Assembly: GCF_055900595.2 (NCBI RefSeq)
Contig: NZ_CM148325.1
Strand: one strand, 5' to 3'
Length of the DNA stretch: 64,000 nt
Positions 63,733 through 63,776 of this stretch are shown here, in pieces (positions within the stretch are counted from its first letter, which is position 1; every line of letters begins with the position of its first letter). Under the pieces are notes generated by a model, which saw only the letters and a list, made by a program, of their open reading frames with translations, ran no database searches and was not told the origin of the DNA. Both the position numbers and the translations under genes were made by a program.

Positions 63733-63776
63733 GTTATTCACTGATTATATTATCAATAATATAATCAGTGAATAAC
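63733..63776. repeat. Perfect 20-bp inverted repeat with 4-bp spacer in AT-rich intergenic DNA
   Basis: GTTATTCACTGATTATATTA-TCAA-TAATATAATCAGTGAATAAC read directly from the sequence. Confidence 0.8.

Follow-up and report, generated by a model that had tools for sequence, protein, structure and literature searches.

What accounts for a perfect palindrome of 44 nt in AT-rich accessory DNA, and what keeps it perfect? Lavi et al. (2018) found long perfect inverted repeats to be strongly overrepresented in E. coli, all of those detected in MG1655 having arms shorter than 20 bp, and to be conserved beyond expectation, which the authors credited to template switching (PMC5941160). We studied an inverted repeat with arms of 21 nt that lies close to the right end of a stretch of 64,000 nt (contig NZ_CM148325.1; hereafter the window), just past the stop codon of a gene for a protein of 678 amino acids.

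A perfect inverted repeat not explained by chance

At positions 63733–63776, the sequence reads GTTATTCACTGATTATATTAT-CA-ATAATATAATCAGTGAATAAC and is reported by a repeat finder as a perfect 21+2+21 inverted repeat. The left arm (63733–63753, 21 nt) is 100% complementary to the right arm (63756–63776, 21 nt), and the two-nucleotide center CA (63754–63755) forms, together with the innermost pairs, the 4-nt loop of the folded hairpin; the arms and the center are unstranded features. An earlier first-pass annotation of the window, made from the sequence alone, had recognized the palindrome and given it 20-nt arms around a TCAA spacer. The palindrome stands, and the arm length needs revision: the T and the A of that spacer pair with each other, leaving 21-nt arms and a CA center.

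The same annotation had considered a 20-bp stem too long for chance, and both simulations and an analytic expectation agree. No other close-spaced inverted repeat in the 64 kb is as long as the palindrome, and the second-longest perfect one has arms of 13 nt; the arm of the palindrome has no further match at up to three mismatches in the window (0 expected). In 30 first-order Markov simulations of 64 kb, the longest arms reached 9–11 nt under the composition of the window and 9–14 nt under the AT-rich composition of its last 600 nt, and analytically ~2e-4 such repeats are expected per 5 Mb of equally AT-rich DNA. A chance origin is excluded. A 10-nt direct repeat, ATAATCAGTG, present at 63218 and 63761, was judged a chance match; five such families occur within 1 kb.

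The folding-energy calculation proposed with the first description gives a stable structure on either strand. Within a context of 111 nt, the RNA has folding energies of −30.8 (plus strand) and −29.7 kcal/mol (minus strand), with z-scores of −6.9 and −4.5, respectively, and the palindrome as a DNA hairpin folds at −17.3 kcal/mol (z = −8.3). This stability is reached with a stem that is 80% A–T and has at its base one G–C pair followed by five A–U pairs.

A gap between decayed BREX genes and the last gene of a defense hotspot

The whole window is collinear with E. coli EC42405 (NZ_CP043414.1, 4397880–4461897) at an identity of 97.8–99.0% and runs from core genes (iatD, uxu, gntP, fim, nanC and nanM) into the accessory region by the tRNA-Leu gene leuX. 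The region at leuX is E. coli defense hotspot #37, described in a 2025 review as the most highly occupied defense island locus (PMC12707154). By collinearity with EC42405, which makes the coordinates approximate, the accessory region holds a cluster of very large helicase and methyltransferase genes (~30.9–57 kb), a type II Zorya system (~57.2–60.7 kb), a second, partial copy of nanM that is 93% identical (60874–61396), an HNH endonuclease (61521–62171, minus strand) and a gene annotated as a "phosphorothioated DNA-binding restriction endonuclease" (62308–63180, plus strand). Past 63180, no live plus-strand gene reads into the palindrome.

The genes that follow are decayed. A 3′ remnant of brxL, the BREX Lon-like protease (63225–63400, plus strand, residues 636–695), is annotated in related genomes as a "peptidase" or "hypothetical" pseudogene, and a 5′ remnant of a phospholipase-D-like (PLD) gene (63499–63683, plus strand, residues 1–62) is frameshifted and has its start codon changed from ATG to ATA. 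The right end of this second remnant is a rearrangement junction: homology to intact BREX-plus-PLD loci ends at 63683/63684, 49 nt away from the palindrome. The 49-nt segment in between (63684–63732, unstranded) holds the U-rich tail described below and had no match in the plasmid and phage collections. It looked like the reverse complement of the leuX 3′ end (TAGTACCAA vs. TGGTGCCGAA), and the candidate att repeat was rejected when 899 of 2,000 shuffles scored as well.

On the other side, the 678-aa gene, which is predicted to encode a PD-(D/E)xK nuclease, is present with its 3′ end (63799–64000, minus strand) and runs off the end of the window; its C terminus reads ...YIRKGND* and its stop codon TAG occupies 63799–63801. 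A spacer of 22 nt (63777–63798, minus strand) separates the stop codon from the hairpin and is polymorphic (ATGG, ATGA or TATATT; G, C or A). In the EC42405 arrangement, the 678-aa gene is the last one in the accessory region, and the palindrome is the first feature to follow its stop codon. It had been described as lying in AT-rich intergenic DNA, and this is borne out by the GC content of 0.31 at 63400–63999, against 0.46–0.50 just upstream, and by its location between the stop codon and the remnants ending at 63683; a coding sequence reaching in from beyond the window, which had been named as a finding that would speak against the proposed roles, does not cover it.

The genes beyond the window, likewise singled out for checking, are the 678-aa gene itself and then, in EC42405, leuX and the core gene ahr. 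These two follow ~690 bp after the 678-aa gene in EC42405 and in strains L014, L016 and L017, and judging from the collinear strain EC42405 the island really ends at leuX, ~2.7 kb past the edge of the window. Elsewhere, islands that are P4-like or CP4-like have inserted between the 678-aa gene and leuX, bounded by the expected direct repeat of ~23 nt of the leuX 3′ end (at ~11326–11349 of locus L001, on the other side of the gene from the palindrome).

One site per genome, always beside the same gene

We searched for copies using the arm, the 117-nt segment 63684–63800 and a 54-nt segment against the window, 5,426 complete E. coli genomes, plasmids, phages, IMG/VR and the JGI metagenomes. The 117-nt segment was found at one site per genome in 339 of the 5,426 genomes, always beside the 678-aa gene; the two apparent places per genome are the two strands of one dyad. 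A permissive search with the palindrome alone returned the same 339 genomes and a 20-nt chance match inside tetC (E = 4), and neither lone arms nor other copies of the palindrome were present in the 5,426 genomes. An exact scan of the JGI metagenomes with one 21-nt arm gave 27 contigs, and a scan of IMG/VR with a 36-nt core gave 3 viral contigs; all 27 and all 3 contain the same junction and the same gene end. The plasmid and phage collections yielded chance-level AT-rich matches at most, and a collection with one genome per species yielded a single contig, 98% identical and labeled as a Lachnospiraceae MAG. The linkage between the palindrome and the 678-aa gene holds for all 339 carrier genomes as well as for the 27 metagenome and 3 viral contigs. 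Genome H85 has a part of the 678-aa gene and lacks the palindrome; this is an IS1-associated deletion in a pseudogene and uninformative. A literature search by locus tags and protein accessions gave no match.

The palindrome is thus single copy at one locus, which answers the first-pass annotation's call for a search of the rest of the genome and of related strains; membership in a known repeat family, which that annotation had named as grounds for dropping its readings, was not found either. REP elements located after the 3′ ends of genes stabilize the upstream mRNA, and the palindrome resembles REP/BIME, ERIC/IRU and MITE elements in being an intergenic palindrome after a gene 3′ end. It differs from them in being single copy, confined to one locus, AT rich and without an Rfam match: the sole hit in Rfam 15 was a spurious one to a microRNA-precursor model (23 bits where the gathering score is 99, E = 0.12). 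There are no direct repeats flanking the palindrome, with TTAGA on one side and ATGGA on the other. Given the single copy, the one context and the absence of flanking direct repeats, we discarded the repeat families (REP/BIME, ERIC, MITE and IS ends).

Variation within E. coli and absence from diverged orthologues

The palindrome is free of substitutions over its 44 nt in the nine complete E. coli genomes compared, whereas the 223 nt of noncoding flank have 27 variable columns. Counted by columns, ~5 variable sites were expected and none seen; counted by events, there was one indel against ~4 expected. The palindrome varies less than its flanks, which is suggestive at most, because of the event count and because the genomes are phylogenetically related. 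Only one of these genomes has a broken stem, through 5 nt inserted into the left arm at locus L014 (SWYHX138.33gt), where the 678-aa gene is disrupted by ISKpn26. Metagenomic alleles are a biased sample, as one arm had to be exact to be found. Among them, a change of the center from C to T occurs in L027 and L032, in two different flank backgrounds, and gives a 44-bp palindrome without spacer, and L042 has a change from A to T near the base of the stem.

Orthologues of the 678-aa gene were compared from Salmonella (76% identity at the nucleotide level), a Logan contig (55% at the protein level, as for those that follow), Izhakiella (52%), Xenorhabdus (51%), Pectobacterium (50%) and Pantoea (40%), each of them a solitary gene in a different neighborhood. 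The palindrome is absent from all six of these diverged orthologues examined with their flanks (40–76% identity). The nucleotide homology between E. coli and Salmonella extends over the coding sequence and stops ~18 nt past the stop codon (~63781), within ~5 nt of the gene-proximal edge of the palindrome. Since the orthologues lack it and the homology with Salmonella stops just before it, the palindrome is specific to the E. coli lineage.

The 3′ sides of the orthologues carry structures of their own. In Salmonella, the stop codon is followed at 13 nt by an AT-rich hairpin of 7 bp and then by a GC-rich hairpin. In Xenorhabdus and Pectobacterium, ~150 nt of 3′ flank move with the gene at 84% identity, and the flank in Pectobacterium includes a GC-rich stem and then a T run. 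Further on in Salmonella, by a convergent yebC-like gene, there is an unrelated 20-bp perfect AT-rich palindrome.

A hairpin at the transcript end as the best-supported reading

On the minus strand, the stop codon is followed after 22 nt by a hairpin with a 20-bp stem and a 4-nt loop and then by a U-rich tail, UCUAAUUUU. The gene is intact, and the site carries no other annotation. The minus-strand tail is UCUAAUUUUAUU in the window and UCUAAUUUUUUU, with a run of seven U, in most alleles; the tail as a feature on the strand of the gene (63718–63732, minus strand) reads TCTAATTTTATTAAT and TCTAATTTTTTTAAT, respectively. We consider it moderately probable that the palindrome is a terminator or stabilizer hairpin at the 3′ end of the transcript of the 678-aa gene and has been kept perfect by template switching during replication. 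A transcript-end hairpin is the best-supported reading because of its position 22 nt past the stop codon and because the terminator pattern and the tail are found on the minus strand only. Also in its favor are the stability of the fold, the constant linkage to the gene, the low variability, the occurrence of the broken stem of L014 beside a disrupted gene, and the 3′ structures that other lineages of the gene have of their own.

A scan for terminator-like patterns flags the palindrome on the minus strand alone, with 20 pairs in the stem, 4 nt in the loop and TCTAATTTTA as the tail. The tail satisfies the lenient rule of the scan, at least 5 T in 8 nt, with the contiguous U run beginning 5 nt after the stem where the definition has 0–2 nt. 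Scored in the style of TransTermHP, with an implementation of our own of the published scheme, the minus-strand tail reaches −3.19 in the window allele and −3.32 in the majority allele with seven T, and the plus-strand tail −2.05; the usual cutoff in this scheme is about −2.5. The first-pass annotation had suggested a strong bidirectional terminator, and one half of this holds. The minus strand has the position, the stable hairpin and the U-rich tail. On the plus strand, the tail ATGGAGTATATAA is not U rich, and the sequence scored there, ATGGAGTATATAATA, stays unflagged, so the features of a bidirectional terminator are not present.

Among the features of an intrinsic terminator, a stable stem-loop downstream of the stop codon on the strand of the gene is present; a GC-rich stem or base, typical and not strictly defining, is missing, with G–C at 4 of the 20 pairs. 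The palindrome shares with Rho-independent terminators and protective 3′ stem-loops the position just past a stop codon, the following U-rich stretch and the placement between convergent units, and differs in that its stem is 20 bp, perfect and 80% A–T, whereas typical stems are shorter and GC rich. Several observations count against a canonical terminator: the stem is AT rich and far longer than usual, the U run comes late, and the number of terminator-like matches in the region is at the shuffle level (1 against 0.6 ± 0.8 expected). The absence of the palindrome from the orthologues at 40–76% identity also weighs against the reading as a transcript-end hairpin. The palindrome adds an undescribed case to a familiar kind of feature and has part of the properties defining intrinsic terminators.

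The course of events would be as follows. RNA polymerase would read the 678-aa gene leftward, on the minus strand, and 22 nt past the stop codon the RNA would fold into the 20-bp stem with its 4-nt loop, followed by the U-rich stretch. Hairpin and U-rich stretch would then release the polymerase (intrinsic termination) or block 3′-to-5′ exonucleases, or both, and either route would define the end of the mRNA. The hairpin would keep transcription from reaching the remnants of the BREX island and the restriction gene, which lies in convergent orientation. During replication, template switching would correct imperfect inverted repeats to perfect ones and so produce the symmetry of the palindrome.

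The last step carries a part of the explanation that the RNA cannot. A role in RNA tolerates G–U pairs and mismatches and does not by itself explain the perfect symmetry of the DNA. As template switching tends toward perfect inverted repeats, that symmetry needs no explanation by protein binding, and the recurrent "perfecting" change of the center from C to T agrees with template switching. The palindrome resembles the repeats of Lavi et al. (PMC5941160) in being perfect and noncoding, in varying less than its flanks and in the recurrent perfecting change of the center, which is a prediction of quasi-palindrome correction; it differs in that its 21-nt arms are at or beyond the MG1655 extreme and in that it lies in accessory DNA and is absent from K-12. 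The analysis establishes the position of the palindrome, its strand asymmetry, stability, single copy and low variability; we infer that the hairpin actually terminates or stabilizes the transcript and that template switching caused its perfection.

Taken by itself, the palindrome is of little weight, a further hairpin at a gene end in AT-rich DNA of horizontal origin. Nevertheless, it offers an unusually clean natural case of a perfect inverted repeat with 21-nt arms that is stably kept in E. coli, and it could serve as a convenient natural test case for the template-switch "correction" of quasi-palindromes and for how long AU-rich hairpins end transcripts.

A functionless relic and other alternatives

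A less likely account, one that we still take seriously, is that the palindrome is a functionless relic, an inverted duplication or template-switch product of the joining of the nuclease gene to the BREX remnants that has been kept perfect by self-correction during replication. It lies in a 97-nt segment between two homology breakpoints, 63683/63684 and ~63781, none of the diverged orthologues carries it, and the same context in all 39 of 39 copies points to a single evolutionary origin. Fold-back copying yields perfect symmetry with a tiny nonsymmetric center, and template switching has been reported to conserve perfect inverted repeats in E. coli with no function invoked (PMC5941160); by event count, moreover, the evidence for constraint is weak. 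What such a relic does not account for is the strand-specific U-rich tail at the right place for the end of the gene's transcript. The flanks carry several common polymorphisms and the palindrome none, and the only broken-stem allele from a complete genome sits in a strain whose gene is already dead. So stable a hairpin in a transcribed 3′ region would also affect the RNA end, selected or not, and the sole difference between a relic and a functional hairpin is whether this unavoidable RNA hairpin matters to the cell.

A site for protein binding is improbable. The palindrome could be an operator for a dimeric DNA-binding protein, as had been proposed initially, or a pair of symmetric, overlapping divergent promoters, in either case controlling antisense or local transcription. 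Its perfect dyad symmetry speaks for this, as do promoter-like hexamers (TTCACT-17-TATAAT, 10 of 12 matches) placed symmetrically on both strands inside it and a match of its center to the IHF core consensus at 8 of 9 positions. Such hexamers are expected in DNA of 70% AT, however (9 found; 4.2 ± 1.8 in shuffled sequence), and because of the dyad the symmetric pair amounts to a single match scored on each strand. The palindrome is situated downstream of a gene rather than within a promoter region, and the outward directions are antisense to the nuclease gene on one side and into dead remnants on the other. Neither upstream of the gene nor in the rest of L001 is there a second site or a half-site, no regulator gene lies alongside, and the 21-nt arms far exceed typical operator half-sites. 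Against the consensus strings, the best matches were 12/19 for Fur, 13/20 for LexA, 11/22 for CRP, 13/16 for ArgR (a degenerate consensus) and 15/28 for dif, and PurR, TyrR, MetJ and NagC gave no good match in the palindrome. With the half-sites lacking in L001, the consensus matches poor and the arms too long, we dropped the operator.

We regard as very unlikely that the gene module was captured by way of the palindrome acting as a recombination or mobile-element site, be it an IS or MITE end, an attC-like cassette site, an att site of the island or some other target of site-specific recombination. The first-pass annotation had suggested that a recombination site could mark another junction of the accessory region here. 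A junction does lie nearby, at 63683/63684, but it is 49 nt away from the palindrome, which is not a direct repeat of the tRNA end and occurs in no other context. The homology between E. coli and Salmonella does end close to the gene-proximal edge, and the gene does move, as its orthologues are solitary in unrelated neighborhoods. Against this, the exact-arm metagenome scan recovered this locus alone, the E. coli genomes hold neither a lone arm nor another copy, flanking direct repeats are lacking, the breakpoint of the BREX remnants is not at the palindrome, and the match to dif is poor. An IS or MITE end was ruled out by the copy number and by the lack of flanking duplications.

An integron attC site was rejected as well. 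The palindrome is like attC in being a palindromic element directly 3′ of a solitary, mobile-looking gene, and its arm starts with GTT and its dyad ends with AAC, superficially resembling integron core sites. It differs in lacking the core motifs and their order, the imperfect arms with extrahelical bases and a neighboring integrase: GTTATTC...GAATAAC has the wrong order and bases relative to RYYYAAC...GTTRRRY, no bases are extrahelical, and no integron integrase is found nearby.

A slight chance is left for a cis element coupled to the nuclease, either a hairpin or cruciform that the nuclease or a partner recognizes (self-regulation or a decoy) or the capture site of a single-gene defense cassette by leuX, because the palindrome is always found with the gene, is less variable than its flanks and starts where the homology with Salmonella ends.

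The neighboring gene as a candidate defense nuclease

The context is more useful than the palindrome: a leuX hotspot, a decayed BREX-plus-PLD island abutting the module and an unannotated nuclease family. The full 678-aa gene (L001, 8600–10636) is annotated as a "hypothetical protein". Its product had no sequence match in Pfam, NCBIfam or the PDB, and PADLOC gave a marginal match to PDC-M29B (E = 1e-3). The gene is a candidate single-gene defense nuclease, a putative role suggested by its neighbors in hotspot #37 (Zorya, HNH restriction genes and BREX remnants) and by the solitary orthologues moving between contexts.

The protein family comprises 216 cluster representatives at E ≤ 1e-3, and D477, E490 and K492, which correspond to the PD-(D/E)xK signature, are invariant in 68 homologues. 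The AlphaFold2 model has a mean pLDDT of 91.6 and a pTM of 0.90. From motif and model, we predict the protein to be an unannotated PD-(D/E)xK nuclease with a restriction-enzyme-like fold.

The best solved-structure match found by Foldseek was Upx (9wuf; E = 3e-5, 665 columns, TM-scores of 0.33 and 0.21, 10% identity). Upx is a single-protein anti-phage nuclease and terminase sensor of ~1,200–1,270 aa (PMC13099982; bioRxiv 10.64898/2026.04.30.721860), a dual nuclease built of N-terminal, middle and C-terminal domains (PMC13099982). Both proteins have, after a large helical region at the N terminus, a C-terminal PD-(D/E)xK core whose ExK is invariant, and both are encoded by single genes in defense-island settings (PMC12707154); at 678 aa, the protein studied here has about half the length of Upx. 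The C-terminal core with its ExK is present in it, whereas the full architecture of Upx and sequence homology to it are not: sequence and profile searches against the PDB sequences gave no match, Upx included. We take the resemblance, which is remote, as a lead and not as membership in the Upx family.

With its invariant motif, confident model and remote resemblance to Upx, the family would be a reasonable candidate for defense screening. Further fold matches of the 678-aa protein were to the McrC, Hjc, Can2 and Shedu nucleases, and a few members of the family weakly match the catalytic domains of NERD, Card1 and Mrr.

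Allele variation within and beside the palindrome

We found the centre of the palindrome (window 63733-63776) to vary among alleles. At window 63754, the central C is replaced by T in two metagenome alleles (L027 and L032) that differ in their flanking haplotypes, and the change removes the spacer of the 21+2+21 inverted repeat, leaving an uninterrupted 44-bp palindrome. The pattern looks like a recurrent "perfecting" mutation created by template switching. A second polymorphism, T/A at window 63725, affects the adjacent A-run, which reads AATAAAA in the window and in the related locus carrying the full-length neighboring gene (L001), and AAAAAAA in most alleles; the run is extended to eight A in L031 and to nine A in L014, the genome in which that gene is disrupted by ISKpn26. 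On the gene strand, most strains thus have an unbroken run of seven to nine U 3' of the hairpin, and the U-tail allele of the window is weaker than the majority allele.

The palindrome also contains promoter-like hexamers, TTCACT and TATAAT with a 17-nt spacing (10 of 12 matches), at 63737-63765 on the plus strand and 63772-63744 on the minus strand. They are found on both strands because of the dyad, and the two face outwards. The hexamers are probably a by-product of the AT-richness, and as putative promoters they could drive antisense transcription at the 3' end of the adjoining nuclease gene.

The adjoining gene and its genomic setting

The adjoining gene, annotated as encoding a hypothetical protein of 678 aa, occupies window 63799-64000 on the minus strand, and the full gene is found at 8600-10636 of L001. 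The protein family, which is unannotated, comprises 216 cluster representatives. D477, E490 and K492 are invariant in 68 homologues and constitute a PD-(D/E)xK nuclease motif. AlphaFold2 models the protein with confidence (pLDDT 91.6), and the top fold match of the model, a remote one, is the single-protein anti-phage nuclease Upx (9wuf; E = 3e-5). We consider the protein a candidate single-gene defence nuclease of the leuX hotspot.

A stretch of approximately 23 nt from the 3' end of leuX (TGGTGCGAAGGCCGGACTCGAAC) is present as a direct repeat at ~11326-11349 of L001 and ~9330-9353 of L002, and forms the border between P4-like/CP4-like islands and the module containing the 678-aa gene. Given this placement, the module behaves as resident DNA flanking the leuX attachment site. 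A 98% identical copy of the E. coli protein is encoded by L019 (SFGN01000178.1), a contig of 4.2 kb that bears the label of a Lachnospiraceae metagenome-assembled genome. The palindrome sits there in the same context as at the E. coli locus, and the contig probably stems from E. coli and was mis-binned.

Hairpins downstream of orthologues in other genera

The Salmonella enterica locus (L020) has a palindrome of its own at ~7236-7285, made of a perfect, AT-rich 20-bp stem and a 9-nt loop (TTATAAATTAAACAAATCTG...CAGATTTGTTTAATTTATAA). It lies some 190 nt downstream of the orthologue, where a convergent yebC-like gene ends, and is unrelated to the palindrome of the window. Islands of this kind may repeatedly carry long, perfect, AT-rich hairpins at the ends of genes. 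The Xenorhabdus and Pectobacterium orthologues (L007, 6044-6195; L008, 6056-6208) share 84% identity across about 150 nt of their 3' flanks. The hairpin within these flanks has a conserved core, TTTAGT...ACTAAA, while its outer stems differ (CACA/TGTG versus GTCTA/TAGAC), and it could represent a conserved 3' element of that lineage.

Remnants and duplications in the surrounding region

The region before the palindrome retains parts of a decayed BREX island: 60 codons from the 3' end of brxL (63225-63400) and 62 codons from the 5' end of a phospholipase-D-like gene (63499-63683), the latter with frameshifts and its ATG changed to ATA. Other strains carry intact BREX-plus-PLD loci at leuX, to which the remnants are 84% identical; the remnants end abruptly at 63683/63684.

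Further upstream, a partial and frameshifted second copy of nanM (60874-61396), 93% identical to the intact nanM (26558-27082), lies between the Zorya II and HNH genes. The two nanM-derived sequences therefore enclose ~32 kb of defence genes, which suggests an earlier insertion or recombination inside the nan region. Collinearity with E. coli strain EC42405 places a cluster of very large minus-strand genes at ~30900-57000, encoding a UvrD-like helicase, three DEAD/DEAH helicases (the longest of about 2,100 aa), a 1,644-aa SAM-dependent DNA methyltransferase and a STY4851/ECs_5259-family protein; the annotation gives the cluster no defence-system name. About 290 nt at window 39926-40217 do not align to EC42405.
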